Shown in pieces: positions 6,077-23,782 of a stretch of DNA of 64,000 nt; the stretch's first letter is position 1, and every line of letters starts with the position of its first letter. The notes under the pieces were generated by a model. The model saw only the letters and a list, made by a program, of their open reading frames with translations, was not told the origin of the DNA and made no database searches. The position numbers were made by a program, and so were the translations under genes. This DNA comes from a virus (taxonomy: Duplodnaviria; Heunggongvirae; Uroviricota; Caudoviricetes): positions 170,321 to 234,320 of the IMG/VR virus record IMGVR_UViG_3300020156_000001; one strand, given 5' to 3'.

Positions 6077-6642
6077 TAGTTTGCTTTCTTGATTGGCGCT
6101 AAAATAAGCAGCATTTGCTTGCCGTTCATCGCCAACGGAGAATCGACCTTGAAGTTAGCATGACCAACTGCATCTGTAAAGGAGTCCATGACCTTCTGCC
6201 CCATTTCACGATGAGACATTTCACGACCCTTGAACTTGACGACAACTTTGACCTTGTCGCCATCTTCGAGAAAGCCGATTGCTCGCTTTGCCTTGATGTT
6301 AAGGTCGTTGGTGTCGGTTACGGGACGAAGCTGAATCTCTTTCGTGTCAACAGCGTTTTCACGATTCTTACGCTTCTGATCCTTCTCGCGCTGCGATAGC
6401 TCGTACTTGAACTTGCCATAGTCAACAATACGAGCAAGTGGGGGATTGATCCCTGGATTTGTGACAACAAGATCCAAACCAGCTTCATCAGCTAGTTCAC
6501 GTGCTCTTGCCGTAGCAAGCTCACCAAGCATTTCACCATTAACGCCGGTTACACGAACAATTGGCGCACGGATTTGGCCGTTGATATCGTGGGCGTCTGT
6601 TGGGCGCTTATTCGCTTCTCGCGAGAAATTCACAGAAATCAT
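6076..6642 (-). CDS. infC: translation initiation factor IF-3
   Basis: Colinear match to bacterial IF-3: INGQIRAPIVRVTGVNGEMLG, VDYGKFKYE, KEIQLRP, DLNIKAKRAIGFLEDGDKVKVVVKFKGREM, MLLILAP. Confidence 0.9.
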   Translation of the reverse strand: MISVNFSREANKRPTDAHDINGQIRAPIVRVTGVNGEMLGELATARARELADEAGLDLVVTNPGINPPLARIVDYGKFKYELSQREKDQKRKNRENAVDTKEIQLRPVTDTNDLNIKAKRAIGFLEDGDKVKVVVKFKGREMSHREMGQKVMDSFTDAVGHANFKVDSPLAMNGKQMLLILAPIKKAN

Positions 6643-7957: not shown

Positions 7958-7987
7958 TAAACTGCCCTTTTTATTATTGTTGAATAT

Positions 7988-8410
7988 TTATACACGCAGA
8001 GATGCCGCTGCAAGCACTGCCGCTTCTCTACTATTGTAGAGCTGACCCGGATAAGTCAAATTTAGACTACGTTTCGTCATTTCAAACGATTGGTTGTCAT
8101 CAACGACAAAGTAGATTTTGGCCTGAGTTTTCATCAGCATCGGCCAAACAAATTCCCATATGGAACACAAATTGACTATAACGGTATCAACCATATTGAA
8201 GTGGTAATAAAGCCAATCCATAAGGTTGTCGTCTGTCCCTTCACACATATAAAGGGTAACGTCGCGTTCAGGCCAATGGATACCAATGCTGTCGAGGATT
8301 TCCATATGGCCAGTGTGATGGTCGAGGGATAGGATACGATCCGCCCCCGGTTCAATATAGAAATCCGGAGGCGTGACACGGGCAAACTTATGCGGTGATG
8401 TAGGAATCAT
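7988..8410 (-). CDS. hypothetical protein (140 aa)
   Basis: Intact ORF; no motif recognised. Confidence 0.45.
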   Translation of the reverse strand: MIPTSPHKFARVTPPDFYIEPGADRILSLDHHTGHMEILDSIGIHWPERDVTLYMCEGTDDNLMDWLYYHFNMVDTVIVNLCSIWEFVWPMLMKTQAKIYFVVDDNQSFEMTKRSLNLTYPGQLYNSREAAVLAAASLRV

Positions 8411-8413
8411 TGC

Positions 8414-8782
8414 TTATTTAAAGAACTTTGGAACAGCCGTGATAGTGATCGGGCGGATTGCTTGATAGCCCGACTTCAACAGCTCGTTGGAATCAACCGG
8501 TTTACGGCCAGCGTTTCGATCCAAAGACCAAGTGATATGCAGGGTGCCTCGATCCGGACGACGGATCGAACCGTTGAAATCAACAACCAAGCACTCTAGT
8601 GAATCATCACTTGCAAAGCCTACAACACGAAGAGTTCCATCAGCGGGAAGCTCGGAGTTGGTTTCAGTTGCACCAAACTTCCAAGTGCAATGGTGGCCGA
8701 TAAAATCGGAGAACTTTGGCGGAAAAATCCGTGCAAGCTTTGCACGATCTTCCTTTGTAAGTTCGTAACCCGAATAAGCCAA
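8414..8782 (-). CDS. hypothetical protein (122 aa)
   Basis: Intact ORF. Divergent from the topoisomerase operon. Confidence 0.45.
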   Translation of the reverse strand: MAYSGYELTKEDRAKLARIFPPKFSDFIGHHCTWKFGATETNSELPADGTLRVVGFASDDSLECLVVDFNGSIRRPDRGTLHITWSLDRNAGRKPVDSNELLKSGYQAIRPITITAVPKFFK

Positions 8783-8954
8783 TTTGCTCTCCTTGTCCTA
8801 AGTGTGCCTGTCCTAGCATAACAGGAATCACAAATCAACCTACAGGCGTAAATAATTATGTGGCGTGTTTATGTAAACCGCTTCTGGGCTCCTAAATATT
8901 GACTAAACTGGCTCCTAACAATTAGAACTTATATAAAACCTTTGGAAATATGAA

Positions 8955-10832
8955 ATGGCTGAACAATCAATCAAAAAACTAACCGACTATTCCCACGTTC
9001 GTCTCAAGACGGAAATGTATTTTGGTTCTCGCGCACCTCATGAACAAACTGTTCTCGCTTATGATGGTCTAAAGCCGGTTCCAAAGACGTATGTTTGGGT
9101 TCCTGCGGTTTACACTGCATTCCGTGAAATCATCGACAACTCTCTTGATGAGGTCGTAGGTCACGGACATGGTAATCGCATCGACGTAACATATGATCCG
9201 GAAACACGTGAAATGAGTGTTGAGGATAATGGTCGCGGTATTCCGATTACTTGGGATGAAGCTCATCAAATGCACGCGGCAACTCTTGCTTTGTCTGAGG
9301 CGCGTGCTGGCCGTAACTTTGAAACTCGTGGTGAAGTCGCTGGTACAAATGGTATTGGTGCCGCAGGTGTCAACTTTTGCTCCGAATATTTCAAGCTGAC
9401 CATTCATCGTGATGGCAAAAAGTTCTCGCAAAGCTTTTCCGAAGGCAATGAATTGCTTGGCGAAGAGTTGGTTGCAAGTGAACCAAAGATTATCGAAAAG
9501 AAGGGTGATCTCACAGGCACCAAGGTCGTGTTTAAGCTGAGCACAAAGGTGTTCGCCGACACAACACTTCCACTGGAATTTGTTCGTGATCGTATCACAG
9601 AAATTGCAATTGCTAACCCACTAATTCGCGTTTACTTCAACGGTAATCAGATTAAGGTTAAGCCACGCCCCGAACAAACAATGTTCGAAAAGATCAAGCC
9701 GATCAACGTGGAAATCAAGCAGGACACGTTCCGCACGCGCTTTTGGCTTGTTCCAAAGTTTATCGATGATGGCGAACATTTTCACACTCTCGTAAACAAT
9801 ATTCCCGCTTTTAACGGCGGTGTTCACGTGGAAATGTTCCGTCGCGAGTTCTACAAGGGCTTGCTTGGTGCACTGGAAAAAGAATCCAAGCGTCGCAAGC
9901 TACAGCCAAACCGCTCCGACGTTACTGAAGGCGTTCTCATCTACAACATCACCAACATGCACGGTCCAAACTTTGACTCTCAAAGCAAGACTCGTTTGAT
10001 CAACGAAGAAGTTGGCAAGATTGTTGGAAAGCAGCTTGAAGATCCTGAGCTTTACAAGGAAGTGATCAAGAAGAACAAAGAGTGGATTGATGAAATCTAC
10101 CAGCGTTGTTCCGAACGCACAATGAAGAAGGACGCAGCGGATATTGCAAAGGCCGCTAAAAAGCTTTCCCGCAGCAAGGTAGCTGGTCTTATGGATGCCA
10201 ATGCTAAGGATCGCACCAAGTGCATCTTGTTCCTAGCAGAAGGTGAATCCGCTATTTCGGGTATGAGCAGCGTTCGTGATCCTGAAATTCATGGTGGTCT
10301 CGCACTGCGCGGTAAGGTTCTCAACGTCAACGGGGAATCACTCAAGACGGTTATTGACAACAAGGCCCTGGCAGACATTATGAATTCGCTAGGACTAGTT
10401 GTTGGTCAGAAAGCCAAGCGTGCGGATCTCCGTTATGGCGCCGTTTACATCGCCCACGACATGGACCCAGATGGTCTAAACATTGGTGCGTTGTTGATGA
10501 ACTTCTTCCACACGTTCTGGCCCGAATTGTTTGATCCAAAGGAAGCCGCGTTTATCAACATTTTCAAGACTCCGTTTATTATCGCGGAAAAGGGAAAGCA
10601 GCGTAAGTATTGGTACTCGCATAACTATCAGGAATTTGATCCGGTAGCACATTCGGGTTGGTCTATTACCCGCGCTAAGGGTTTGTCCACTCTAACCGAA
10701 GAAGACTGGCAGTATTCGTTGGATAATCCAGAGCTATTCCCAATTATAAATGATGGGAAGATGCAGGACACATTGGATCTAATCTTCAACACTACACGAT
10801 CGGATGATCGTAAAGACTGGATTGGAATGTAA
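8955..10832 (+). CDS. DNA topoisomerase II large subunit (T4 gp39/gp60-like; GyrB-type ATPase + Toprim)
   Basis: N-terminus LTDYSHVRLKTEMYFGS and the GHKL ATPase region resemble T4 gp39. Toprim-like EGESA/DxD region FLAEGESAISG ... DMDPDG. Confidence 0.8.
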   Translation: MAEQSIKKLTDYSHVRLKTEMYFGSRAPHEQTVLAYDGLKPVPKTYVWVPAVYTAFREIIDNSLDEVVGHGHGNRIDVTYDPETREMSVEDNGRGIPITWDEAHQMHAATLALSEARAGRNFETRGEVAGTNGIGAAGVNFCSEYFKLTIHRDGKKFSQSFSEGNELLGEELVASEPKIIEKKGDLTGTKVVFKLSTKVFADTTLPLEFVRDRITEIAIANPLIRVYFNGNQIKVKPRPEQTMFEKIKPINVEIKQDTFRTRFWLVPKFIDDGEHFHTLVNNIPAFNGGVHVEMFRREFYKGLLGALEKESKRRKLQPNRSDVTEGVLIYNITNMHGPNFDSQSKTRLINEEVGKIVGKQLEDPELYKEVIKKNKEWIDEIYQRCSERTMKKDAADIAKAAKKLSRSKVAGLMDANAKDRTKCILFLAEGESAISGMSSVRDPEIHGGLALRGKVLNVNGESLKTVIDNKALADIMNSLGLVVGQKAKRADLRYGAVYIAHDMDPDGLNIGALLMNFFHTFWPELFDPKEAAFINIFKTPFIIAEKGKQRKYWYSHNYQEFDPVAHSGWSITRAKGLSTLTEEDWQYSLDNPELFPIINDGKMQDTLDLIFNTTRSDDRKDWIGM

Positions 10833-10876
10833 CAACATTCCTTTCCACTATATTTTAGAAATTAATAAGGCTCAAA

Positions 10877-12229
10877 ATGGCAACACTATCTAGCTCCTCA
10901 TATATTCTCGATACTTCACGTGAATACTCTATCTATGTTTGTGAAAACCGCGCAATTCCAAAAGTTGCCGATGGTCTCAAGGACGCACAACGCAAGGCAC
11001 TTTGGCTAATCCGTAACAAAGCGGAAAAGGTCAAGACTGTATCTTTGGCTGGTGAAATGATTCAATCCGGCTTGTACTTGCACGGTGACGCTTCCGCAGC
11101 GGGCGCTGTTTCAATGCTTGCGGCTCCTTTTGTAAACAACGTGCCGCTGCTCAATGGTATTGGTACGTTTGGTACTCGTACTGCGCCGGTTGAAGGTATT
11201 GGTGCTCCACGTTACACCTACGTAAAGCGTGGCTCCGCTTTGACTCAGCTTATGCTGCCGGACTTGGATATCGTTCCTCTTAAGGAAAACTATGATGGCT
11301 CCGTAAAGGAACCCGTACACTTTCTTCCACTAATCCCTACGGTTCTCCTAAATGGTGTTTCGGGTATTGCGGTGGGTTGGTCTACTGAAATCCTACGTCG
11401 CAAGTTTTCCGATATTGTTGAAGCTTCGATTGCAGCTTTGGATGGCAAGAAGATCAAGCAGCTGGTGCCACATTACGAGCGTTTTGATGTCAACGTAAGC
11501 CATCTCGAAGGCAACACTTGGAACATGAATGGTCGTGTGGAACTTGTGGACACTTCTACAATGCGTGTTACCGAGCTTCCACCGGATCTAACACTGGCAA
11601 AGTTCAAGGAACGTCTTAACACACTTGAAGACGAAGGCAAGATCAACACTTACACGGACCGCTCCACAAAAACCATCGACATCACTATCAAGATGGCACG
11701 TGGCACGATTTCCGGCTGGGATGAAGAAAAGGCCATTGATTTCCTAAAGCTCAAGCAAAAGAAGACCGAACGTATCGTTGTTGTGGATTGGAATAACTCC
11801 AGCATCAAGCAGTACGACACGGCTGAAGAAGTTGTGCAAAGCTTTGTTAAGTGGCGTTTGGGTTGGTATACAGTACGTTACGAATATATGCTGGCAGAAG
11901 ACGAGTACTCGTTGAACTTCTGGAAGGCAGTGAAGGCTTGCTTTGATGGTAAGCTGCCTGCAAAGCTTCCAACACTTGCCAACAAAGCAGCGATTCAAGA
12001 TGAAGTTATCAAGCTGACCAAGGGCATCAATGTTGATGAGTCGCAAAGTGATAAAATCGTTAGCTTGCCATCATTCCGTTGGGCCAAGGACGCGTATCAA
12101 GACGTTCTCGACAACATTGCACGTTTGGAAACAAACATTCAAACCTATACGGCTACACTTGCTGATCCAAAGGCATTGAAGGCAATTTACAGGGATGAAC
12201 TCGTAGCGTTGTCCAAGCTAAAGTTCTAA
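10877..12229 (+). CDS. DNA topoisomerase II medium subunit (T4 gp52-like; GyrA-type breakage-reunion)
   Basis: ADGLKDAQRKALW ... GDASAAGAV is GyrA/ParC N-terminal-like. Immediately follows the gp39-like gene. Confidence 0.75.
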   Translation: MATLSSSSYILDTSREYSIYVCENRAIPKVADGLKDAQRKALWLIRNKAEKVKTVSLAGEMIQSGLYLHGDASAAGAVSMLAAPFVNNVPLLNGIGTFGTRTAPVEGIGAPRYTYVKRGSALTQLMLPDLDIVPLKENYDGSVKEPVHFLPLIPTVLLNGVSGIAVGWSTEILRRKFSDIVEASIAALDGKKIKQLVPHYERFDVNVSHLEGNTWNMNGRVELVDTSTMRVTELPPDLTLAKFKERLNTLEDEGKINTYTDRSTKTIDITIKMARGTISGWDEEKAIDFLKLKQKKTERIVVVDWNNSSIKQYDTAEEVVQSFVKWRLGWYTVRYEYMLAEDEYSLNFWKAVKACFDGKLPAKLPTLANKAAIQDEVIKLTKGINVDESQSDKIVSLPSFRWAKDAYQDVLDNIARLETNIQTYTATLADPKALKAIYRDELVALSKLKF

Positions 12230-12287
12230 GAAACGAATAACGCCCAGTGATTTTCCACTGGGCGTTTCCATGAGCTACTTGTGCGTC

Positions 12288-13679
12288 TTAGCGATACGTG
12301 TAGTCGACTTCCATATCATTACCGACCAAGTCTTTGAACTTGAGCTTGAGCTTGTAGAAGGTCAGCGATTCAGGAGTTGCATTGGGCCACTTGTGGCGAA
12401 CTGTTTCCAGCTGATCTCTGTGACTACCGTAGCCCCAGAAGTTATTGCGAGAAACCTGCTGAGTAAGCTTGGAAATTCGCTTTTCCTCCAGCAATGCAAT
12501 CGGCGAAATTGCTTCAACCGAACCATAATAGCTGAAGCTACCGGACGAATTTTCCTTGACCGTAACTGGAAGATCCCGCTTGTGGTTTTTCCAGTTGGTA
12601 TCAAACGAGCAGGTACCGTATTGGGTACCGTTGCCATCGTCGTATCCAACAATGCAATGGTTGAGATAATAGCGATCAGCAACATCGCTCTTATATGCCT
12701 TATCCCACCAGTCCAGGAAAAAGTCGGAGTCACCAATTGCAACGAGTTCACGTTCAACACTAACAGTGGTAAACTTGCTTGGGCCGAGAAGAATGCAGCG
12801 CGTTCCATAAGCGTAGTACTCGCCCCAGCTCTTGGGCACATCAACAACGTCTGGACCCTTTTCGGCAATTACCTTGTTGAGAATGTTGCAAGCTTCATCC
12901 TGCGTGATTTCGCCGCTGTCGTCGAGAACTTCCGCGATCTTCAAGCTTGTCTTGAGCTCAATTGATCCGGTTAACTTTCCATCCTTGTCGACATGACGAT
13001 ACGCGAACATATGCTTGTCGCCGCCCAACGGGCCCAGCTTGATGTCGGACATTTGGATGCGATTGCCGTTGGCATCTTCTTCCTTGCGCGTGTAGCCGTA
13101 GCCAAAAACGCGACCATAGTAGATTGCTTCCGTACCGTTCTGGAAGAGAATCTTCATGCCCGGCTTGACGTCCTTGACAGAAGTCCGCTTGCCCATACGT
13201 TCGGTGTTTGTGGTCGCACGAGTGTAAACTTCCGAAGCCGTTGGAATGAGAATGTTGTTGGAACCAAGCCGGCCCCAAATGCACTCCTCGAGAATTTCAC
13301 CCTTTTCGATGGTTGAAATTTCGAGAATTTCCTGGAAGTTACCCGAGCCGATTTCCAGCTGAAATCCGCGAGGATCTTCGATACGCCATGCGTCGGAACG
13401 AGCATCCCAACCACGGCCGCCGCCGGCCACCAGCTTTGCGATCTTGAAGCCAACCATTGGCTTGTTCTCGTATGTGGACGCCGGCAATGTTGCTTGTTTG
13501 GCCGAACCATAACCTGAGCCGCTTGCCCAGCTATCAACAGTGGCTTTGCGCTTTTCCGCAGCTTTGTCAGTACCATCGGGCGTCATAAAGCCCAGTGGAA
13601 GTTCGTCGCCCGAACGCTTTTGATATCCCACATAATGGGCAGTGGGGATTTTGATATCAAGGGAGTTTTTGGTAGACAT
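12288..13679 (-). CDS. hypothetical protein (463 aa)
   Basis: Long intact ORF; no motif recognised. Confidence 0.55.
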   Translation of the reverse strand: MSTKNSLDIKIPTAHYVGYQKRSGDELPLGFMTPDGTDKAAEKRKATVDSWASGSGYGSAKQATLPASTYENKPMVGFKIAKLVAGGGRGWDARSDAWRIEDPRGFQLEIGSGNFQEILEISTIEKGEILEECIWGRLGSNNILIPTASEVYTRATTNTERMGKRTSVKDVKPGMKILFQNGTEAIYYGRVFGYGYTRKEEDANGNRIQMSDIKLGPLGGDKHMFAYRHVDKDGKLTGSIELKTSLKIAEVLDDSGEITQDEACNILNKVIAEKGPDVVDVPKSWGEYYAYGTRCILLGPSKFTTVSVERELVAIGDSDFFLDWWDKAYKSDVADRYYLNHCIVGYDDGNGTQYGTCSFDTNWKNHKRDLPVTVKENSSGSFSYYGSVEAISPIALLEEKRISKLTQQVSRNNFWGYGSHRDQLETVRHKWPNATPESLTFYKLKLKFKDLVGNDMEVDYTYR

Positions 13680-13687
13680 TTCGATCC

Positions 13688-13924
13688 TCAGGATTGGAGT
13701 TTAAGGATAAAAGCGTAACGGCGTTGGACTTCGCCCATTGCTTCCATGTATGGCTTAGCAGCTTCTTCCGCTGCCTTTTGTTTTGCCGCGTTCATTTCTC
13801 TGCGGAGGTCTTGAAGCTTGTCCCACATGTCTTTGAGGGCTTCGCTGTTTTCTCGTGCATCAAACTCGCTGCCGCCAAAGCTTGCAAGTGCGTTGCGAAC
13901 GTCGGTAAGAATCTTATCGCTCAA
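13688..13924 (-). CDS. hypothetical helical protein (78 aa)
   Basis: Intact ORF. Confidence 0.4.
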   Translation of the reverse strand: MSDKILTDVRNALASFGGSEFDARENSEALKDMWDKLQDLRREMNAAKQKAAEEAAKPYMEAMGEVQRRYAFILKLQS

Positions 13925-14469
13925 AGCATAAACCCTCCAGCATCACGCCAAGAGTCGAGCCGCTGTTGGCGATCAAAGGCATCCGGTGGAAACTCAACTA
14001 TAAAATGTGGCGCGTCTCGGTACTCGGCCAATGGAATCTTGTCCTTGTCAAGATATCCCTTTTCTTTTGCGACCTTCTCTTCCCAATCACGGATTTCTTC
14101 GCGAAGCTTTTCAACCGCATTTTTGGATTCACGAAGACCTTCGCGGGTAACTGATCGATGCCCTTTGATCACTTGGATAATGTTGGAGAACATGATGCTG
14201 GAACGGATGAAAAAACGATAGCGACCAACATCCTCAGGACCATAAGTGAGCATGTCAAAGATGATGCGTGAGGACCACTGTTTACCAAGAGTCTCACTTA
14301 GGCTGTTTATAACCTCGGTTGCCTTTTCCGCACCATGTACGCGCTTAATCGCACGGATAAACTTGAGCGAAATGTCTTGAACATCAGAAAGCTCTACTTC
14401 CGATGGTTGATCAAAACGTTCCCTTGCAGTCATCATGCGTGAGCCAGATACGTAGTTTGTGGTCATCAA
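13921..14469 (-). CDS. hypothetical protein (182 aa)
   Basis: Intact ORF. Overlaps the downstream start. Confidence 0.5.
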   Translation of the reverse strand: MMTTNYVSGSRMMTARERFDQPSEVELSDVQDISLKFIRAIKRVHGAEKATEVINSLSETLGKQWSSRIIFDMLTYGPEDVGRYRFFIRSSIMFSNIIQVIKGHRSVTREGLRESKNAVEKLREEIRDWEEKVAKEKGYLDKDKIPLAEYRDAPHFIVEFPPDAFDRQQRLDSWRDAGGFML

Positions 14470-14584
14470 CGTGTCCTTATGTTTGCGCCAACATAACTTA
14501 GGTTATCAGTTTGTCAACCGCAATTCAACTAGTTGAAGTTATCGCAAGTTGGCTTTAAATACGGTTGTATCTTTGGAGAATGAA

Positions 14585-15193
14585 ATGGCTTGGACTTATG
14601 AAGCGCGTATGACTCGCGCTATTGCAAAGCTTATCGACACCGCACGTATCGACCGCGTTGATACGTATAAACGTGCCAAATTCTTCGACAAGTATGCTTT
14701 CCGAGTTAGCTTGAATGTAAGCTTGGACCAGTGGGTCAATTTTGATGACCTCACTCAGTATTACCACACCATGTTTGATCCAATGGATGCACATTTGGTA
14801 TGTGTGAGAAGCACGTTCGACATCTTTGTTTATGGAAATGATCCAGCAATCCTCACGTGGCTGATCAAGCATCCATCCGTACAAATCAACAACATGATCC
14901 AAACGGATCCCGCAAGTTGGCATAAGAAGCTACCAAAGAAGAAGAACTTGGGTAAGTTTTTTGGAGAGTTTCGCTTCCGCATTCGTATGCGTGATGCCCA
15001 GTGGGGTGCAAAGCAGGAAAACGTTGACCAACTTGCAGAGCTGGAAATGAACCATCGAATGGTTCTTCGAAAGTATAATCCAGATGTCGCAGTTTACCGC
15101 GACACCTTTATCTATGTGAACAAGCTCAACGAAGTGCTAGTCCTCAAACTAATGTTTGGAGACCAAGTTGCCGAAGTTACTGAGCGCTCTTAG
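14585..15193 (+). CDS. hypothetical protein (about 202 aa)
   Basis: ATG at 14585 with GGAGAA upstream. The longer 14549 start uses TTG. Confidence 0.5.
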   Translation: MAWTYEARMTRAIAKLIDTARIDRVDTYKRAKFFDKYAFRVSLNVSLDQWVNFDDLTQYYHTMFDPMDAHLVCVRSTFDIFVYGNDPAILTWLIKHPSVQINNMIQTDPASWHKKLPKKKNLGKFFGEFRFRIRMRDAQWGAKQENVDQLAELEMNHRMVLRKYNPDVAVYRDTFIYVNKLNEVLVLKLMFGDQVAEVTERS

Positions 15194-15638
15194 GAACATA
15201 ATAAGCAGAATTGTTCTCATGCTCCCAAATCTCAACCTTTGAGATCCAAGCACGGCCCTTTGTCTTTTCTAGAATCAACGGGTTGATCGTATCGTAGACC
15301 CACTTTGCAGAACCTTCAATGCCCGGCCCATGACCCTTGGAAGCGTCCATAACAGTAACACGAACAATGTTAAATTCCTCAAGAGCTTGAATCTTGTCCA
15401 AGTGAGGATCCTCGGAGCTCAGCAAAAGCTTGTGATCCCATGCGTCTTCGATGATCTTCTTTGCATCACGAAGATCGCCAAAATCTACAACCCACATGCG
15501 CTCGTCGATTTCGCCTTCAAAGTCAAATCTAACGTAGCGACCATAGCCGTGAATCCACGCGCAATGGCCATCATCCAAATATTGACGATGGCCTGTGCTG
15601 ATTGGTCCGATTTTCTTGGAAGAACCGAAATTACCCAT
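15177..15638 (-). CDS. 6-pyruvoyl-tetrahydropterin synthase / QueD-fold protein (HGH replaced by HGY)
   Basis: Colinear with QueD. GHRQ ... DGHCAWIHGYGRY aligns with EGHKCGRLHGHSF. DFGDLRDAKK aligns with DFAELKAAFK. WDHKLL aligns with LDHHYLN. C-terminus E ... Y. Confidence 0.65.
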   Translation of the reverse strand: MGNFGSSKKIGPISTGHRQYLDDGHCAWIHGYGRYVRFDFEGEIDERMWVVDFGDLRDAKKIIEDAWDHKLLLSSEDPHLDKIQALEEFNIVRVTVMDASKGHGPGIEGSAKWVYDTINPLILEKTKGRAWISKVEIWEHENNSAYYVPKSAQ

Positions 15639-15722
15639 AATATACTCCTGTAATGTTGACAGAAAGCTTTCTGTCCTGTTATCACAAATATAGCTGGTTC
15701 AGACAAGTAGAGTCAAAATTTA

Positions 15723-16082
15723 ATGCGCGGCCTTAGAGATGAAGAAAAGAAGCTTTGGGAGGACTTTACACAAGGTGTAAAGTTGGAGCCCTCTGACTCA
15801 CTTCCTTTGCCGCCAAAGACTACTCGTCCTCAGGTTCAGGATATATCATTTTCAACGGTGTTGGATCTTCACCATTATACGATCCAACAAGCCTACGAAG
15901 CGAGCAGTGCTCATCTTGAGCAGGCCTTCTATTTACGAATTAAGAAGGTCCAGCATATCACAGGGAAAAGCGGGCAAATATCTCAGGAGTTTGAAACCTG
16001 GGCAAAGCTGCATCCTAGAGTCCGTAAAATACAAAAACAAAATGATGGCGGAGCTTGGCTATTATGGCTAAAAAAGTCGTAG
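15723..16082 (+). CDS. Smr (small MutS-related) domain protein
   Basis: LDLHHYT ... ITGKSGQ ... NDGGAWLL matches the Smr LDLHG ... ITGKG core. Confidence 0.6.
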   Translation: MRGLRDEEKKLWEDFTQGVKLEPSDSLPLPPKTTRPQVQDISFSTVLDLHHYTIQQAYEASSAHLEQAFYLRIKKVQHITGKSGQISQEFETWAKLHPRVRKIQKQNDGGAWLLWLKKS

Positions 16083-16381
16083 ACGCAGATATTCTACATG
16101 CAAAAATTCAAAGCCTAACTTACCGTAATTGGTGCGGTGTGGGCTATTACAGTGGGTCGGGCTACAACAATAACAATGTGGAAGACGCAATGCGGGCAGC
16201 CGCAGCGCAAATCAATTCACAAATTGCGGCCAACGTAAACGACGCGATTCGTCACGTTCTTATGGAATTGCAGAACGCGATTGTAGAGGCCAGCTTTGAT
16301 GAAACTGCCGGCCTCTGCGGACTTTGCCGTCCAATGGATGGTGAATGTTTGCCGCCGGATTTTCGTCCAGTTAATCGTTGA
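16055..16381 (+). CDS. hypothetical protein (108 aa)
   Basis: ORF overlaps the Smr gene's 3' end by 28 nt. Confidence 0.35.
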   Translation: MAIMAKKVVDADILHAKIQSLTYRNWCGVGYYSGSGYNNNNVEDAMRAAAAQINSQIAANVNDAIRHVLMELQNAIVEASFDETAGLCGLCRPMDGECLPPDFRPVNR

Positions 16382-16901
16382 GATTTAGGGCGTCGATAAA
16401 TTCAATGCCATGTAGTTCACAACCTGGAAGAACCATGGACTTGAGATCATCAACAAGTGCGGTGAGCCCAAGCTCCTTACACTTGAGACCCTTCCAAACG
16501 GAAACTCCATTATAGAGTTCTTCATAGTGTTCAACAGTGACTTTGTGGTGTTTGAGGCCACGAAGCCACTTTTGTTCACTCTTTGAACCACGTTCGCCAA
16601 CTCTGCTTAGAAGTTCCCAGAAAGGAACCCCAAGTTCCTTTGGCATTCCGTGAACACCATGGAACATGGAAAGATCCATACCAAACGCCCCAATGTCTTG
16701 GGCGATCATATCAAAATCTCTGCCGTTGCGGAAAGTGACTAAGTGGAGTTCCACTTGCTTGTGGTGTTCCTCAACCCATCGCTGGAGAAAAAAGCTGTTC
16801 GGCCCATGGATAAGAGTTGAGTCGATATCCACTCCAATCGCTTTGTGAGCGTTTAGTTTTGGGTGGTAAAAGAAACTCTTGGGCGATTCTGCAAGTGTCA
16901 T
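16371..16901 (-). CDS. HAD-superfamily phosphatase-like protein
   Basis: N-terminal IGVDIDSTLIHG carries the HAD motif I DxDxT. Confidence 0.55.
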   Translation of the reverse strand: MTLAESPKSFFYHPKLNAHKAIGVDIDSTLIHGPNSFFLQRWVEEHHKQVELHLVTFRNGRDFDMIAQDIGAFGMDLSMFHGVHGMPKELGVPFWELLSRVGERGSKSEQKWLRGLKHHKVTVEHYEELYNGVSVWKGLKCKELGLTALVDDLKSMVLPGCELHGIEFIDALNLND

Positions 16902-16948
16902 GTGTTCTCCTTATTCCACTGTTATAACAGGAAATCAGGAACTGTCAA

Positions 16949-17311
16949 CTACAGCCAAGCTAACCGAAACAAACTGGCATATTTGGCATCTTTGAACATG
17001 ATAACGCATTGGACGGCAAATGGCGGGCCATGGTAGTCGTTCATTTCAATCACATGCCAAGTCCAACTCATATCATAGCCAAAAGTACCGCAGTGTAAGC
17101 CAGTGTCTTTGATCCACTGCTTTACGTTGGATTTGAAATCCACAACAGAAAGAACCTGTTGGACATTTCTGGCCCTTACTCTTGAGCTATGGGACCATTT
17201 GTTGATCATGTCGTGTGTGTCGGGAGGAACATCGAAAAGTTTATCAAAATCATCAGCGTCATCCAAGATGAAAATAACGCCACCGCCTCTGTTTTGTGTT
17301 TTTACAGCCAT
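16949..17311 (-). CDS. LFKLRW-family small protein A (120 aa)
   Basis: C-terminus KYASLFRLAWL. Upstream KQWIKDTG. Confidence 0.55.
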   Translation of the reverse strand: MAVKTQNRGGGVIFILDDADDFDKLFDVPPDTHDMINKWSHSSRVRARNVQQVLSVVDFKSNVKQWIKDTGLHCGTFGYDMSWTWHVIEMNDYHGPPFAVQCVIMFKDAKYASLFRLAWL

Positions 17312-17619
17312 GCCAGTTTAAACACCAATGCTTTGTCATCCTGTGGTATCCACAACCGCAAGGCAACTTTTATTTCCATAGTCGACGCTGCCCATAACGC
17401 TTGCCAGGTAAAATTGCAATCCTGGGGATGCCAATTCATGTCGTCAAGCCACTCACTAAAATCGTCTTTAAGAGGTAGCTTGTCCAACATTGCTTGATGG
17501 AGTTTGACATCCGCATCAGTAAAATAATTGATACGATGGCTATTGAGAAACCAAAAGTATGGCTCAATATCAAAGAACGGTTCAGCGTGATAAAAATCGA
17601 AATTTTTTCTTAGAGCCAT
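17302..17619 (-). CDS. LFKLRW-family small protein B (105 aa)
   Basis: C-terminus DDKALVFKLAWL. SEWLDDMN. Confidence 0.55.
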   Translation of the reverse strand: MALRKNFDFYHAEPFFDIEPYFWFLNSHRINYFTDADVKLHQAMLDKLPLKDDFSEWLDDMNWHPQDCNFTWQALWAASTMEIKVALRLWIPQDDKALVFKLAWL

Positions 17620-17873
17620 CTCAGCTTAAACAGCATTGCAGTTTTACTATCGTCAAAAACTATCGATGGACCATCTTCGATGTTCTCATTGTTGTACGCA
17701 TACTTACTCTTGGCATTGGTTTCAAGCCATTCCTCAACTTCAGGATTCAAGAACATCAAGTCGCCACTGATCTCGACCGGTGAGCCACCGTAACATTTTA
17801 TATCCACAATCACATTGTCCTCAAACATATGATTGTGGTAAAACGTTTCGTACTCTTCGAGATAAAACAGCAT
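17610..17873 (-). CDS. LFKLRW-family small protein C (87 aa)
   Basis: C-terminus SKTAMLFKLRWL. EEWLETNA. Confidence 0.55.
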   Translation of the reverse strand: MLFYLEEYETFYHNHMFEDNVIVDIKCYGGSPVEISGDLMFLNPEVEEWLETNAKSKYAYNNENIEDGPSIVFDDSKTAMLFKLRWL

Positions 17874-18226
17874 TATTCACTCCACGTGAGTTTGAACAAG
17901 CTGGCTGCTTCTTTGCGGTAGAATCTCAAATAAAATGCGTGAACAATCATCTTGTTATAAAACGCATCATCCCAGTAACCCGAGTATAATGGCATGCCAT
18001 CTTCAGCAGTGGCGTGAGTTTCAAGCCACTCTTTTAGCTCCGGCCTTGCATAACTCATAGTGCGGGAAAATGACAAATCCCATGGCCATAAGCCATCATC
18101 ATATCCATCGGAAAAACGACCACTTGGTCCAATTGGACCAAGGTCGAATACCTTTTTGATATCTTTGGGTTCAAGCTGGATAATAAATTGCCCAGTTTGA
18201 TCTTCGCCTTTGTAGATCATGCCCAC
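17873..18226 (-). CDS. LFKLRW-family small protein D (117 aa)
   Basis: C-terminus KEAASLFKLTWSE. RPELKEWLETHA. Confidence 0.55.
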   Translation of the reverse strand: MGMIYKGEDQTGQFIIQLEPKDIKKVFDLGPIGPSGRFSDGYDDGLWPWDLSFSRTMSYARPELKEWLETHATAEDGMPLYSGYWDDAFYNKMIVHAFYLRFYRKEAASLFKLTWSE

Positions 18227-18474
18227 CTCAACTTGAACAGCAAGCGATCATTTTCCGTCTTGAACGCAATGGTTTCACAACTCGTATACGCGACTTGTAT
18301 ATTCTCGTCTGCAAGCCATTGTTTTAGTTCTGGTCGAACAACGTTGTCCCGTTGCGCGTTGTAAGTGGCACCGTTCCAAACCAATCTGGTTAACGTTTCG
18401 AATATCTTTTCCTGTGGAAATTCAAGTTCAAAAGGAAATTCCACTTCTCGATCGACCGTACTAAGCTGCATCAT
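18217..18474 (-). CDS. LFKLRW-family small protein E (85 aa)
   Basis: C-terminus ENDRLLFKLRWA. RPELKQWLADEN. Confidence 0.55.
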   Translation of the reverse strand: MMQLSTVDREVEFPFELEFPQEKIFETLTRLVWNGATYNAQRDNVVRPELKQWLADENIQVAYTSCETIAFKTENDRLLFKLRWA

Positions 18475-20005
18475 GTTCCAATTTCCTCAACATTGCAGTG
18501 GCCTTGTCCTTGTACAGGAACAAGGTTGCATAATCCACATTTGGGCCCAGATTTGCATGGGCCATCATAAAATCATTACCGGCTTCAACACTTTTTGCCA
18601 CAATTGGTTCCAACCGGTCCATAGCGATCTGCATCATCTCGTGCATATTGTGCCAGTAGGCGTAGCGGTCCTGTTCGTACTTGCTCCACGTGTAATGGGA
18701 AACTTCCCAAACATACAATTGGGACTTGTCGGGAAACACCTTATCAAAGTGCGCCAACATTTCCTCGCATGGATGATGACCCTGCGCCCAACGTGTTTTG
18801 AAGAACCGCAGGATCTGGCCCATTTGTGGACCCGGTTTAACGCCACGTGCCATCAGATCTTTACCAGTGATCGTAAAGCGATCGAACGTGCTGTTATAGA
18901 TGACTTGGTTATCTTGATCCAGCATTTTGAATGCGATGGTTGAGATAATGTTGGCTTGCGTGATATGCTCTGCAACCATTACCGCAGCAGCTTCTAATTG
19001 TGGATCCGAACCATTCGTAGTGTTCAAGTAGAAGTGACTTTGGATCGCTTCTACGCTATCGAATGGGCACGTCATGTAAAAGCTGATGATCTTGATCATG
19101 TAGTCGTAAGCACGACGCTCGCTTGAAGAAAACTTCAAACGTTCTGCCACAATTTCGTACGACTTTGGATCAATATTGCAGACCAACACTGCCATGACCA
19201 ATGCCTCAACCATAACGGGATGGCATCTCAGGCGATCTTCAAACCGCTTCATCGCCATCAAAATGGTATGGCCAACACGCCGATACTCTGGACCGTTGAT
19301 TGTTTCCCCGTTGCCCAGGGTTTCCATCAGCTTTGTGCCAAAGACCAACCTCAATGCGTCTCCCGCATGTGGCGCGGTCAGGATCTTTTTCAGTTCAGCC
19401 CAAATACGTTCACCGCTCAACCCACGCATACCCTCATGAACCCATGGCATGTTGAACAGCTGGTAGATGCTTTGTGGAGCCTCAGAAACAGCCGTCTTTG
19501 CAAAGAACCTCACATATCGCCAAACACGCAGGTAATCCTCACGAACACGTTCATTGGGATCACCAACAAACATGATAACACCGCGTTTCAAATGATCGCG
19601 ACCTTCAAAGTAGTCGTAGATGTGGCCGTTGATGTCCATGCTCATCGCGTTCATTGTAAAGTCGCGACGTTCTGCATCCAATTGGAAGTCTCGAGTGTAT
19701 TCAACCTTGGCATGACGGCCATCGGTTTCAACATCCACACGCAAAGTGGTAACTTCAAAGGGCTCACCGCCCATCATAAACGTTACCGTGCCGTGCTGCA
19801 AACCCGTTGGGATCACATACAAACCATGCTGTTCAGCCAGCGCCATCATTTCATCTGGCGTAGCATTGGTGCACAGGTCGATATCCTTTGGCTTCAAGCC
19901 CAAGCACAAGTCACGAACGGCGCCGCCAACAACACGAATTTCGTATCCGCTGTCGACGAAGATTTCCGCCAATTTCATCAAGTACCTGTTGTTGAATACC
20001 AACAT
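18461..20005 (-). CDS. class-II tRNA nucleotidyltransferase (CCA-adding enzyme / poly(A) polymerase family)
   Basis: Head-domain motif RVVGGAVRDLCLGLKPKDIDLCT (GGxVRD ... DxD). 514 aa with a long C-terminal body. Confidence 0.8.
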   Translation of the reverse strand: MLVFNNRYLMKLAEIFVDSGYEIRVVGGAVRDLCLGLKPKDIDLCTNATPDEMMALAEQHGLYVIPTGLQHGTVTFMMGGEPFEVTTLRVDVETDGRHAKVEYTRDFQLDAERRDFTMNAMSMDINGHIYDYFEGRDHLKRGVIMFVGDPNERVREDYLRVWRYVRFFAKTAVSEAPQSIYQLFNMPWVHEGMRGLSGERIWAELKKILTAPHAGDALRLVFGTKLMETLGNGETINGPEYRRVGHTILMAMKRFEDRLRCHPVMVEALVMAVLVCNIDPKSYEIVAERLKFSSSERRAYDYMIKIISFYMTCPFDSVEAIQSHFYLNTTNGSDPQLEAAAVMVAEHITQANIISTIAFKMLDQDNQVIYNSTFDRFTITGKDLMARGVKPGPQMGQILRFFKTRWAQGHHPCEEMLAHFDKVFPDKSQLYVWEVSHYTWSKYEQDRYAYWHNMHEMMQIAMDRLEPIVAKSVEAGNDFMMAHANLGPNVDYATLFLYKDKATAMLRKLEHDAA

Positions 20006-20119
20006 AATTCGATCTCCGTTTACAAGCTTAATCTAACACAGATAGCAAGTTTGTCAAACGCTAAAACCAGTTTCTGGAATGCAATAAATAGATGAAATTA
20101 TGTCCGGAGACCCGCTCTT

Positions 20120-23100
20120 ATGGCTTTAGTCAAACCACCAAATATCAAGTCACCTATTACAGTTAACGCTACTGGTGACACGCCTATCACAAAAACGTTT
20201 ATCGAATGGAAATCAAATAGCGCAACAGGATCGCTTGCTGCTACCAAGATCCAATACACGTTTTTGGGCTTGTCACCGTCAATTGGCGCGGTTACCAAGG
20301 GCGGCGCTCCTGTATTCCAATTCACACAAGCTGATTTGAACAGCCCGGGTGTTATCAACTACACGCCGGATCGTTCCAACAAGAAAACGCTTGATGTTGT
20401 GATGAGACTTCGTGTTACTGACCTAACAGATGGCGACAGTGACACTTTTCCAGTAACTATTCGTTACTCTCTTCCTGACTTGGCTCCAGAAGGTTCTGTT
20501 GGTCCGCTAACTGTTGAAGAAGATGGTCAAGCCACTGTAACAACGGCCCAGATCAACTTTGTCGATTTGTTTGACGCGCCAAACGCCGTGTTTATCGAAA
20601 TTCAAGCTTGGCCCGTACACGGTGATATGCTGTTCAATGGCAAGCTGGTTGGCCCAAGCAGTGCGGTTAAGATCACAATGGCTGATGTTATCGCGGGCAA
20701 GCTCGCATACAAGCACAATGGTGATGAAGCCACTGAAGACCACTTGTTCTTCAAGGTGCGCGATACAAAAAACAAATGGTCTGGTATCACAGTTGGCGAA
20801 CAAACCGAAGACGTAGCCAGCGTTTACGATATGCCAATCAATATCGTACTTTCCGATATTCCACTAAAGGTAGTCAACAAGGGGCCTGCTGAAGTTGTTC
20901 AGTGTGAAGAAGTTACGATTGGTCCGGAATTGCTATCCGCAGATGACGAAGATGATGGCGATCTAACACTGACTTGGAAACTGTCCAAGCTTCCACTCCA
21001 TGGTATCCTAAAGAAGAATGGCACCCCAATGACCGTGGGTACCACTTGGACTGATAGCGATATTAGCTCGGGCAAGATCACATACGAACAGGATTGCTCC
21101 GACACTCCAGTTGACACATTTGAGTTCTCTGTCGAACATTCCAAGGAAAAGCTGGAAAATGTTAGCTTTCCAATCCAGCTGATCAAGAATCTTCCGCCGG
21201 TTATCGAAATCAACGAACTACAAGTTGAAAAGTGTAACACTGGTATTCCTGCTGAAGTTAACATCAAGATCACCGATCCTGAAGGTTTGCTGCCAAAGGA
21301 TATCAAGCTCAAGTATGCGCCAAACACACCAGAGACTCCGCGTCCTAAACATGGTATGATTGGTATCAACGGTAAGACTGGTATTCCAGGTGTAACAGAA
21401 TTCACATACGCTGATATTCTAGCTGGAAATGTCCACTACATTCACGATTGCACGGATCACGATCCCGCAACTGATGAGTGGTGGTTTACTGTTTATGATG
21501 GTGGCCACGAAATCACTGTAAAGCTTCCAATTGTTATCATCTTTAAGGATGACCTTCCTCCCTACTTGACTCAAAACGTTGAGCATTTTGTTGAGCGCAA
21601 CGATGAAGTTTCTTGGAAGATTGACAAGCTAGACTTTACCGACGATGACACCGAATATCCAAAGGTATTCTTTGAACTGGTAACACTACCCGAACATGGC
21701 GAGTTGTTTATCAACGGTCTTCCTGCAGCGGAAGGTCAGAAGATCGCACGTTCGGATTGGGATGATATCGAGTTCCGTTATGTTGCTGGTGCGCCCGACA
21801 ATTCGGTCACAGAAGACCGCGCAATGTTCAAGCTCTACGATGAGAAGAACACTGTGGACGATCTTGCTATTGTGTTCAAGTTCCCACCACCGCCTACGGT
21901 TTGCCCAGAAGTTCTCAACAACTTTATCACAACCGCTTACACGTTGAAGAAAGTAATTTCTGAAATCGACATGTTTGCGTCAAACGAAGGCATTGATTCC
22001 ACTGAATTCGTTTGGACTCTCAAGAAAGCTCCCGTATATGGTGACCTAAGCGTGGGCACGGTTAAGTTGGTTGATGTTCTTCCAACAAAGCCAGATCCAG
22101 CTGACCCGCCAGTGGCGAATACTTGGACGTCCAAGGATATTGAGGACATGCAGTTCTCGTATCAACACCTACGTGATGCTCCGTTTACTGATGAGTTTGA
22201 GTTCTCAGTAACCAACGGCTTCTGCGCGGTTCAAGGCAAAGCAATCATCAAGTTCATCCCAGGCTTGAACATTGATATCAACAAGGTTCTCGAAGTTGAT
22301 CAAGGCTTTACCCCATCGGTAACTCCTGGTCTTATTGACGAAACCTACTTGCTCAGCAGTTCTGGATCTGTTTCGGATCCAGGTCTACTCCTGTACACGG
22401 TAAAGACATTGCCTACAGTTGGTACATTGTATTTGGATGATTACCCAGTTGCACTAAGCGCGACTTCCTACACGTTCTCACAACAGCAAATCAACGATGG
22501 TAAGCTCCGTTACGTACCAAATGATTCCAATCATGAAACTACTGAGGACTTGTTCAAGTTTGAAGTTGTTGATGGTATTGAAAAGCGTGAAGGCGTATTC
22601 AAGATCAAGATCAAGCTTTTGGATACTCCGCCGGAAATTATCATCAACGAACTGGTTGTGGGTGAGCTAACTTGTGGCAGCATTCTGGAAGTTAAGCATT
22701 TGAAGGTAGAGGACGATCAGTCCAGCCCAAGTGAACTTGTGTTTACGCTACTCTCAATTCCACAGTATGGTGAGCTACTAAAGAGCAACGTACCAATGGC
22801 AATCGGCGATACATTCACTTATGGTGATGTTATCAACGGTGCTATGGGCTATTGTGAAACTGAAGAAGGTGCCCTGCTTGACTCGTTTGACTTTACCCTT
22901 ACCGATAAGGGCGGTAATGAAGTAACACCACTTCACTTCCCAATTAAGATCATTCCTCCGCCACCACCGGAGCTTGTAAATGATGGTCTTACAATGGAAC
23001 CTTGCACGGTTCGCGCAATCACAATCAACATGTTGGATGTGAAGAACTTGCGCACCACATTCAATCGCGCGGGTATGGTGTTCAAGGTAACAAAAGCTCC

Positions 23101-23773
23101 AAAGCATGGCGTTCTCAGCAAGGGCGCGGTAGCATTGGCTGTTGGGGATACTTTCACACTTGCGGATCTTCTCGCTAATACCGTCACATACACCAGCATC
23201 TCGTTTAAAACAGATCCTGATTCCTTTGACTTTGATGTACAAAGCGATGTGTTTACTTCCAAGGGCAACACGTTTGATATCAAGCTACGTGCCGTAAACA
23301 ATCCACCTTGGATTTGTGTAAACACGGGTATGTTGGTATTCGAACAGGAAACCAAGGCAGTAACTCTGGACATGCTACAGATGTGCGATGTGGATATGGA
23401 CCGTGATAAGATTGCGGACTTTGATCCAGAAAGTGCAGAAGACCTTTCTCCACTGGTTTATCCGCTTGGTGAAGTTATCAACCCATCGGAAGTCGATGGC
23501 AGTGGTCGCATAAACAAGGATGTTCTCATCGAGTTCCCAGGTGTTAAGTACAAGTTCACGTTTACTGTAAAAGCGGGTTCTGCCCGTGCTATTGTTCGTG
23601 ACCAAAATGGTGCCACACTTGCAAGCTCGATCTGTGCAACATCAGCAAGTGGCGTGGTTGTTATGGAGTTTAGTCCTCCAGTCAGCAGCACACAGATCAA
23701 TTGCCAAGTAATTGAAAATTGTGTCCCAGGTGCAGTTGATCCGGATTGGACATTTGACCTCGCAAAAGCCTAA
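20120..23773 (+). CDS. giant repeat protein (1217 aa) with about 10 cadherin/VCBS-like beta-sandwich repeats
   Basis: A roughly 100-aa unit recurs with the pattern G.[ILV].Y.[HP] ... D.F.F.V.D ... [ILV].[ILV] ... PP.[ILV]. Examples: GKLRYVPNDSNHETTEDLFKFEVVDG ... IKIKLLDTPPEIIINE and GKITYEQDCSDTPVDTFEFSVEHS ... IQLIKNLPPVIEINE. Confidence 0.7.
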   Translation: MALVKPPNIKSPITVNATGDTPITKTFIEWKSNSATGSLAATKIQYTFLGLSPSIGAVTKGGAPVFQFTQADLNSPGVINYTPDRSNKKTLDVVMRLRVTDLTDGDSDTFPVTIRYSLPDLAPEGSVGPLTVEEDGQATVTTAQINFVDLFDAPNAVFIEIQAWPVHGDMLFNGKLVGPSSAVKITMADVIAGKLAYKHNGDEATEDHLFFKVRDTKNKWSGITVGEQTEDVASVYDMPINIVLSDIPLKVVNKGPAEVVQCEEVTIGPELLSADDEDDGDLTLTWKLSKLPLHGILKKNGTPMTVGTTWTDSDISSGKITYEQDCSDTPVDTFEFSVEHSKEKLENVSFPIQLIKNLPPVIEINELQVEKCNTGIPAEVNIKITDPEGLLPKDIKLKYAPNTPETPRPKHGMIGINGKTGIPGVTEFTYADILAGNVHYIHDCTDHDPATDEWWFTVYDGGHEITVKLPIVIIFKDDLPPYLTQNVEHFVERNDEVSWKIDKLDFTDDDTEYPKVFFELVTLPEHGELFINGLPAAEGQKIARSDWDDIEFRYVAGAPDNSVTEDRAMFKLYDEKNTVDDLAIVFKFPPPPTVCPEVLNNFITTAYTLKKVISEIDMFASNEGIDSTEFVWTLKKAPVYGDLSVGTVKLVDVLPTKPDPADPPVANTWTSKDIEDMQFSYQHLRDAPFTDEFEFSVTNGFCAVQGKAIIKFIPGLNIDINKVLEVDQGFTPSVTPGLIDETYLLSSSGSVSDPGLLLYTVKTLPTVGTLYLDDYPVALSATSYTFSQQQINDGKLRYVPNDSNHETTEDLFKFEVVDGIEKREGVFKIKIKLLDTPPEIIINELVVGELTCGSILEVKHLKVEDDQSSPSELVFTLLSIPQYGELLKSNVPMAIGDTFTYGDVINGAMGYCETEEGALLDSFDFTLTDKGGNEVTPLHFPIKIIPPPPPELVNDGLTMEPCTVRAITINMLDVKNLRTTFNRAGMVFKVTKAPKHGVLSKGAVALAVGDTFTLADLLANTVTYTSISFKTDPDSFDFDVQSDVFTSKGNTFDIKLRAVNNPPWICVNTGMLVFEQETKAVTLDMLQMCDVDMDRDKIADFDPESAEDLSPLVYPLGEVINPSEVDGSGRINKDVLIEFPGVKYKFTFTVKAGSARAIVRDQNGATLASSICATSASGVVVMEFSPPVSSTQINCQVIENCVPGAVDPDWTFDLAKA

Positions 23774-23782
23774 GGAGCTAGG

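Follow-up and report, generated by a model that had tools for sequence, protein, structure and literature searches.

The window analysed here, a stretch of 64,000 nucleotides from the Caudoviricetes virus record IMGVR_UViG_3300020156_000001, carries a gene for a 153-residue tunnel-fold (T-fold) protein related to QueD, the 6-carboxy-tetrahydropterin (CPH4) synthase of 7-deazaguanine pathways. Genes for an Smr-domain protein, a small conserved protein, a HAD phosphatase-like protein and a CCA-adding enzyme lie beside it (Table 1). A preliminary description made from the sequence alone had aligned the protein colinearly with QueD and had read its zinc motif, CxxxHGH in QueD, as CAWIHGY with the third zinc His replaced by Tyr, and both observations hold. 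The translation of the open reading frame (ORF) gives C26-A-W-I-H30-G-Y32, and a phmmer search against the PDB aligned the window protein colinearly with E. coli QueD (4NTK/4NTM), with His17 matching His16, Cys26 matching Cys27, His30 matching His31, Tyr32 matching His33 and Asp68-His69 matching Asp70-His71. In MAFFT alignments Glu139 faces Glu110 of the E. coli enzyme. The catalytic residues Cys26, Asp68-His69 and Glu139 (Cys27, Asp70-His71 and Glu110 in E. coli) are all present and are invariant in 60 homologues. The Pfam family PTPS (PF01242) matched at 71 bits over profile positions 8-119 of 121 (E 1e-19), above the curated gathering score of 22.4 for membership of the superfamily, and phrog_2389, "QueD-like 6-pyruvoyl-tetrahydropterin synthase" (PTPS), matched residues 5-151 (E 2e-31). 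An AlphaFold2 model computed with the 60 homologues as input (predicted local distance difference test, pLDDT, 96.8) agrees with the T-fold monomer, a four-stranded antiparallel sheet with two helices, of solved PTPS and QueD structures. Its top Foldseek matches in the PDB were QueD of P. aeruginosa (2OBA, ranked first) and of E. coli, with E values of about 1e-8, and all 36 matches at E<=1e-3 belong to the PTPS/QueD family (QueD, PTPS, QueD2 and homologues, the uncharacterised WS1659 among them).

The window gene is a member of the PTPS/QueD fold with the C-x3-HG spacing of PTPS-I/QueD. It also adds a member to a phage family already known, as it both matches the phrog_2389 profile and bears the HGY signature of that lineage, and its GenBank relatives are already annotated "QueD-like". 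Published signatures are CxxxHGH for QueD/PTPS-I, CxxxxxHGH for PTPS-II and ExxHGH for PTPS-III (PMC5041015). The protein has the Cys-to-His spacing of the first of these but Tyr for its final His, and where E. coli QueD has a three-His zinc site (His16, His31, His33) it has His17, His30 and then Tyr32. Three other identities were rejected: PTPS-II because the Cys stands four and not six residues before the His, PTPS-III because the position of the Glu, three residues before the His, is occupied by Ala27, and DpdL because the segment reads CAWIHGYGR instead of LxxxHRHxF and keeps the Cys where DpdL has Leu.

The zinc motif had been called degenerate in the preliminary description, a term that its conservation does not bear out. 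CxxxHGY is found in 119 of 120 database homologues at 50-73% identity, and the lone exception alters the His and not the Tyr. In an alignment of 60 homologues at 48-70% identity, 28 residues are invariant; they include H17, C26, H30, G31, Y32, D68, H69, E108 and E139, that is Tyr32 together with all catalytic residues. CxxxHGY is thus no product of degeneration but the signature, kept with strict conservation, of a large lineage of phage proteins. One could still regard the window protein as a decayed, catalytically dead QueD, a pseudoenzyme, as it has lost one zinc ligand and scores below the NCBIfam equivalog cutoffs, but its full-length ORF, the 28 invariant residues and the pLDDT of its model make this highly improbable.

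The Tyr form is also that of well-known phages. The annotated QueDs of phiSM, immuto_2-6A, Iggy, R5C, Phosso, phiST and ACP17 all align with CxxxHGY, and the same seven also lack the first zinc His, having F/Y-RQW where E. coli has HR. We call these proteins type B, and we call type A the window protein, gp226 of phage PA5oct and many metagenomic proteins, in which the first zinc His is kept (HRQW) and an insert, GPGIEGS, is shared; both labels were defined in this analysis by the presence (type A) or absence (type B) of that His and that insert. Type-A proteins are 45-65% identical to one another and 28-40% identical to those of type B. Of the three histidines of the zinc site in cellular QueD, type B retains a single one. 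As judged from the alignments, the metal site would consist of two His and a Tyr in the lineage of the window protein and of one His and a Tyr in the sister lineage, both unlike the three-His zinc site of the cellular enzymes. In the deazaguanine clusters examined of phiST, phiSM, immuto_2-6A and Iggy, no QueD homologue occurs other than one of HGY type. The DNA of these four phages is known to be modified: in phiST 100% of G is replaced by 7-deazaguanine (dDG), and the modifications are mdPreQ1 in phiSM, fdPreQ1 in immuto_2-6A and dPreQ0 in Iggy (PMC10516641, PMC10484667). Our literature searches found no mention of the loss of one or two zinc histidines in the QueDs of these model deazaguanine phages. 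Since type B keeps a single zinc His and yet serves phages with fully replaced G, the HGY lineage may be independent of zinc or use another metal.

The partners of such an enzyme are encoded elsewhere in the window's own genome. As the preliminary description had said of FolE, QueC and QueE, the window itself has no FolE, QueC, QueE or TGT domain among its 91 ORFs. The window PTPS (P0001), a FolE (P0246) and a QueE-like protein (P0126) have, however, one listed contig each, of 480,361 bp and with jgi, lgn and ena as sources in all three cases, so that FolE and the QueE-like gene share contig and sequencing run with the PTPS gene but occupy a different locus. Searches of a protein database with queries from the Sinorhizobium jumbo phage Phosso (469 kb) showed P0246 to be 88% identical to Phosso FolE and P0126 64% identical to the Phosso QueE-like protein; the top NCBIfam matches of P0126 were five QueE models (E 1e-10 to 2e-18). 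Logan run SRR7003763 contains one contig 100% identical to positions 7902-25638 of the window and also yields a contig of 15.4 kb, L032, that carries DpdL-like, glycosyltransferase (GT)-like, FolE and QueE-like genes. The order on L032 is a DNA polymerase fragment, a hypothetical protein of 106 residues, a sliding-clamp homologue, the DpdL-like protein of 127 residues, a GT-like protein of 361 residues, two small ORFs, FolE, a small ORF and the QueE-like gene, so the locus adjoins genes for DNA polymerase and sliding clamp. The DpdL-like protein is 79% identical to the product of Phosso gene 223, 56% to ACP17 gp125, 53% to PA5oct gp166 and 33% to the founding DpdL, phiST CGPG_00067; judged by motif and position, gp125 appears to be the ACP17 dpdL expressed by Cui et al.

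The window is collinear with Phosso at 32-92% amino-acid identity, and the whole Phosso genome contains FolE, a QueE-like gene, a DpdL-like paralogue and one QueD-type PTPS gene. This QueD is of type B (63% identical to Iggy QueD) and sits in the same slot as the type-A gene in the window. The exchange of the two types at a single slot argues that both do the same job, and it also speaks against a functional tie to the neighbouring Smr and HAD genes. An IMG/VR search with the window gene returned relatives at 51-54% identity only.

Taken together, these results make it probable that the window gene provides the QueD (CPH4-synthase) step of a FolE-QueD-QueE-DpdL 7-deazaguanine pathway that modifies the phage DNA. 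The link to 7-deazaguanine pathways made in the preliminary description was therefore the right lead, and the repurposed PTPS fold that it offered as an alternative is not needed, since the genome also encodes FolE and proteins like QueE and DpdL. The description had also named a genome devoid of other pathway genes, together with a protein devoid of the catalytic Cys and Glu, as what would speak against such a role; genes and residues are both there. In the proposed scheme FolE would convert GTP to dihydroneopterin triphosphate (H2NTP), from which the window enzyme would form CPH4, with Cys26 and Asp68-His69 acting as relay, Glu139 as pterin anchor and His17, His30 and Tyr32 as the predicted metal site. 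The QueE-like radical-SAM enzyme would turn CPH4 into 7-carboxy-7-deazaguanine (CDG), and the DpdL-like paralogue of QueD would then probably decarboxylate it to 7-deazaguanine. The end product, presumably of this kind, would replace or decorate G in the phage DNA and shield it from host nucleases.

Type-A genes keep similar company in other genomes (Table 1). Gp226 of PA5oct is the closest cultured homologue of the window protein (52% identity), and the homologues on the Tara contig L017 and the IMG/VR contigs L030 and L031 are 51-54% identical to the window protein. These closest relatives in other phages adjoin FolE, QueE and DpdL and never Smr or HAD, neither of which stands beside a type-A gene in any other context that we read (PA5oct, the marine contigs, L016, L017, L030 and L031). 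PA5oct DNA resists five restriction enzymes, which its authors read as a sign of modified G (PMC12191111); literature searches on PA5oct together with queuosine gave no match.

Table 1. Positions and gene orders of the features discussed (window, the 64,000-nucleotide stretch; aa, amino acids; nt, nucleotides)
Feature	Location	Strand	Remarks
QueD-like (PTPS-I-type) T-fold protein, 153 aa	window 15177..15638	minus	feature under study; type A CxxxHGY lineage
Smr-domain protein, 119 aa	window 15723..16082	plus	Pfam PF01713, 29.3 vs 25.7 bits
Small conserved ORF, 108 aa	window 16055..16381	plus	between Smr and HAD genes
Divergent HAD phosphatase-like protein, 176 aa	window 16371..16901	minus	D25-I-D27-S-T29
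Five tandem paralogous small genes	window 16949-18474	minus	120, 105, 87, 117 and 85 aa; between HAD-like and CCA-enzyme genes
CCA-adding / poly(A) polymerase family tRNA nucleotidyltransferase, 514 aa	window 18461..20005	minus	Pfam PolyA_pol E 1e-30; phrog_2244 E 3e-59
Three consecutive very large proteins	window 20120-28866	plus	1217, 373 and 1321 aa; Cadherin_3 (cadherin-like) domains
tRNA-Ile(tat), 92 nt	window 5474-5565	minus	
Permuted (two-piece type) tmRNA	window 38185-38609	plus	tag ANDNSVASQPVALAA
DpdL-like gene, 127 aa	L032 2182-2565		FLGYIHRHIF, the DpdL signature LxxxHRHxF
DpdL-like gene paired with GT-B/GT4-like gene	L032 2182-3647		
DpdL-like gene paired with GT-B/GT4-like gene	Phosso 150419-151890		
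DpdL-like gene paired with GT-B/GT4-like gene	PA5oct 224607-226130		
DpdL-like gene paired with GT-B/GT4-like gene	ACP17 84803-86215		
DpdL-like gene paired with GT-B/GT4-like gene	L017 12963-14512		
Canonical HGH QueD and type-A HGY protein	PA5oct (L003) 169206-171971		
Canonical and type-A PTPS	L016 9117-11103		radical-SAM gene, type-A PTPS, canonical PTPS, consecutive
Genes, PA5oct			FolE gp231, canonical QueD gp230 (CRHLHGH), type-A gp226, GT-like gp167, DpdL-like gp166, QueE gp162
Gene order, marine PA5oct-like contigs			FolE, small ORF, then type-A gene
Gene order, Tara contig	L017		type-A PTPS, FolE (by Pfam), two ORFs, DpdL-like, Pfam Glycos_transf_1 protein
Gene order, IMG/VR contig	L030		type-A PTPS, QueE, putative FolE, DpdL-like; QueE and FolE assigned from sequence appearance, not family search
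Gene order, IMG/VR contig	L031		QueE, type-A PTPS, putative FolE, DpdL-like, DpdA3 homologue; QueE and FolE assigned as for L030

Several points weigh against the assignment of the window gene to the QueD step. The protein misses the cutoff of the NCBIfam QueD equivalog TIGR03367 (42.4 vs 89.25 bits). The only phage QueD shown to complement an E. coli delta-queD strain is that of phage 9g (PMC6884629), the motif of which is canonical (CRHLHGH), and our literature searches brought up no mention of an HGY or Tyr variant of QueD or of its assay. PA5oct has a canonical HGH QueD as well as the type-A HGY protein, about 2-3 kb apart, and on contig L016 the two forms are direct neighbours. Our reading of the source genome covers about 80 kb of its 480 kb, and it was Phosso that we scanned whole, as a proxy. 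The preliminary description had proposed a search for folE, queC, queE and dpdA beyond the window, and this succeeded in part: FolE and QueE-like genes were recovered on the same contig as the window gene, but tblastn, phmmer and a DpdA3 hidden Markov model detected neither QueC nor DpdA in Phosso. Searches for DpdA and QueC across Phosso and all fetched loci were negative except for the DpdA3 homologue of L031. Finally, dDG was not reconstituted in E. coli with DpdL and DpdA (Cui et al., PMC10516641).

The presence of both a canonical and a type-A protein in PA5oct and in L016 means that the two forms could be non-redundant. One explanation would be that type-A HGY proteins are not isofunctional with QueD and catalyse another pterin or deazapurine step, in a pathway with DpdL and the GT-B-like protein, CPH4 being supplied by a canonical QueD of the phage or the host. 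The canonical gp230 of PA5oct directly follows FolE, with gp226 about 2 kb away, and the row of radical-SAM gene, type-A PTPS and canonical PTPS on L016 can be read in the same way. Type A is also remote from type B, with an invariant insertion of its own (GPGIEGS), and T-fold paralogues do shift function by few substitutions, as seen for DpdL and PTPS-III (PMC10516641, PMC5041015). We nevertheless consider this explanation unlikely: L017, L030, L031 and the marine PA5oct-like contigs show no second PTPS within the 3-10 kb read on either side, Phosso has one QueD-type PTPS besides its DpdL-like paralogue, type A fills the exact slot of the type-B QueD of Phosso, and the catalytic residues of QueD are all invariant, the third zinc His alone excepted. 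By analogy with the low-zinc paralogue QueD2, a type-A protein beside a canonical QueD could instead be a zinc-sparing isozyme.

A further alternative accepts the QueD step but directs the pathway to tRNA. The phage would then boost CPH4 and CDG, and QueC, QueF and TGT of the host would place queuosine (Q) in the many phage tRNAs with GUN anticodons. Such a scheme would suit the translation genes near the locus, and it agrees with the negative searches for QueC and DpdA in Phosso, which encodes tRNA-Asp(gtc), tRNA-Asn(gtt) and tRNA-His(gtg) and many translation factors, and the window likewise has a CCA enzyme, IF3, a tmRNA and a tRNA. The DpdL-like protein, a proposed CDG decarboxylase, has no place in the Q pathway, however, and yet it is conserved with FolE and QueE. 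The locus of these three genes lies beside replication genes, and the DNA of PA5oct, a phage with this gene set, resists restriction enzymes (PMC12191111). In the Agrobacterium jumbo phage Atu_ph07 the translation module is present, but the slot is free of PTPS and the DpdL-like and GT-like proteins have no match; this phage is also absent from the best 25 of 404 phage records matching Phosso FolE. We thus find tRNA very unlikely as the target and DNA the more plausible one.

The end of the proposed DNA-modifying pathway may differ among phages. In the source genome, Phosso, PA5oct, ACP17 and L017 the DpdL-like gene is paired with one for a GT-B/GT4-like protein of 340-390 residues. None of these five was among the tblastn matches of the L031-type DpdA3, and the DpdL holders that do have DpdA3 (Ahp1, D479, RHph_I1_18 and Bakedbeans) were absent from the matches of the GT-like protein; phiST also has DpdA3 according to Cui et al. 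(PMC10516641). Holders of DpdL therefore fall into two distinct sets, one with DpdA3 and the other with a GT-B-like neighbour, a division that we did not find in the literature searched. We rejected the GT-like protein as a hidden DpdA3, as hhalign gave a probability of 0.1% and the protein instead has weak matches to Pfam Glycos_transf_1. The pairing may mark an undescribed pathway end: since DpdL is always paired with the GT-B-like protein in the group of Phosso, PA5oct and ACP17, and no DpdA of any type was detected in Phosso, the one complete genome searched, the pathway may finish in an undescribed guanine hypermodification or in an insertion that is independent of DpdA. This leads us to a tentative and rather doubtful proposal with two arms, taken jointly. 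Either the HGY lineage is a CPH4 synthase with a remodelled metal site, Tyr being a ligand or a catalytic residue, and hence a new mechanistic class of QueD, or the pathway of this group of phages ends in one of the two ways just given.

The preliminary description had placed the gene in an RNA-processing theme with its neighbours, the ORFs of which we confirmed. The Smr protein was identified by Pfam, and LDLH (residues 47-50, the DxH motif) and ITGKSG are visible in its sequence; with 83% amino-acid and 79% nucleotide identity to Phosso gene 506 it is the best-conserved gene of the stretch, and it is 42% identical to Atu_ph07 gp015. The adjoining small ORF is 60% identical to Phosso gene 505, which has the same position, and Atu_ph07 gp016, at this position, is of similar size; no match was found in Pfam, PHROG or NCBIfam. 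The HAD assignment comes from motifs and from a family alignment of 66 sequences, where D25, D27, T56, R58, K137 and D152 are invariant and T29 and D151 nearly so. All four HAD motifs are present: I (DxDxT; D25/D27/T29), II (T/S; T56), III (K; K137) and IV (DD; D151/D152). The protein itself had no sequence match in Pfam, PHROG, NCBIfam or the PDB, weak Pfam HAD matches appeared in three of the 66 relatives, and a profile search against the PDB reached HAD proteins only at E 0.3-1; a single-sequence AlphaFold2 model (pLDDT 32) was not used. It is 52% identical to Phosso gene 504, labelled "polynucleotide kinase" in that genome, and 43% identical to Atu_ph07 gp017, which abuts the tRNA nucleotidyltransferase.

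The CCA-enzyme gene is syntenic with Phosso gene 498 and Atu_ph07 gp018, and three jumbo phages with genomes of 470-490 kb keep the module of CCA enzyme, HAD, small ORF and Smr (positions 15723-20005 of the window, genes 498-506 of Phosso and gp015-gp018 of Atu_ph07). In Atu_ph07 the order is tRNA nucleotidyltransferase gp018, HAD-like gp017, small ORF gp016, Smr gp015 and gp014, with no PTPS in between. As the module lacks PTPS there, the QueD gene is an insertion into the slot in the lineage of Phosso and the window. From the adjacency in the window and Phosso one could suppose that the PTPS-like protein processes or repairs RNA together with the neighbouring Smr and HAD proteins and the CCA enzyme. 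We give it hardly any credence, because the module exists without PTPS in Atu_ph07, the slot holds different QueD subtypes in the two relatives and Smr and HAD are absent from the other type-A contexts; judging from gene order, the adjacency seems positional and not functional. The module may be a unit for the repair of tRNA 3' ends, as its own adjacency suggests. A PE.KEWL motif and, at the C terminus, LFKLxW(L) are common to the five tandem paralogues within the stretch, and the one that was scanned had no family match.

Phosso has a 93-nt tRNA-Ile(tat) at the place syntenic with that of the window, and the phage of the window also encodes its own permuted tmRNA. Conserved counterparts of the three Cadherin_3 proteins occur in Phosso and Atu_ph07, one of them annotated there as "putative internalin". 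Pfam matches in the window further include ClpX, IF3, TelA, SPFH/flotillin and a PAS + HWE histidine kinase, at 6698-7957, 6076-6642, 28867-32845 and 55305-56957, coordinates that were assigned by synteny with Phosso rather than per ORF by Pfam; these are cell-like functions typical of this group of jumbo phages.

For annotation, our results imply that a "broken" zinc motif in a phage QueD should not be taken for a sign of decay or of novel function, since CxxxHGY is the usual phage form. An HGY QueD together with FolE, QueE-like and DpdL-like genes predicts a G modification of the 7-deazaguanine type in this 480-kb jumbo phage and in Phosso, which bears on evasion of restriction and CRISPR, on sequencing artefacts and on defence systems that sense modified G. 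As to enzymology, cellular QueD and PTPS work by a mechanism that depends on the three-His zinc site, and one or two of these histidines are missing from QueD in the best-studied deazaguanine phages.

Among known systems, E. coli QueD (PTPS-I, EC 4.1.2.50; 4NTK/4NTM/3QN0) shares with the window protein the T-fold and the C-x3-HG spacing, and its Cys27, His16, His31, Asp70-His71, Glu86 and Glu110 all have equivalents there. The window protein, whose activity is predicted, differs from it in Tyr32 for His33, in an identity of about 22%, in its length (30 residues more, with a helix-strand insert at about residues 73-105), and in falling below the TIGR03367 cutoff. Every solved structure matched by the type-A profile in the PDB has HGH. 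The top match (E 3e-8) was QueD2 of Acinetobacter baumannii (7V0F, PMC9894224), which like the window protein is a QueD variant with an altered relation to zinc but, unlike it, is bacterial and keeps HGH (SIHGHS). DpdL, the proposed CDG decarboxylase (PMC10516641), is a T-fold paralogue related to PF01242 and belongs to the same pathways; it has LxxxHRHxF without the catalytic Cys, whereas the window protein keeps the Cys and has HGY, and its genome has a separate DpdL-like gene. The type-B QueDs of phiST, phiSM, immuto_2-6A, Iggy, ACP17, R5C and Phosso have CxxxHGY and the Cys, Asp-His and Glu in common with the window protein and belong to gene sets with FolE and QueE (and QueC or DpdL), but they have lost the first zinc His, lack the GPGIEGS insert and are 28-40% identical to it. 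Also close is the system of PA5oct gp226 and its marine and metagenomic type-A relatives (phrog_2389), which are 52-73% identical to the window protein and share with it GHRQ...C-x3-HGY...DH...GPGIEGS...WEHENNSA. In PA5oct-like phages the type-A gene is near FolE, ClpX, S21 and Hsp20, whereas in the window it lies between an ORF of 214 residues and Smr, and PA5oct differs in its additional canonical QueD, gp230; FolE, QueE and DpdL-like genes are found alike in PA5oct-type genomes and in the genome of the window.

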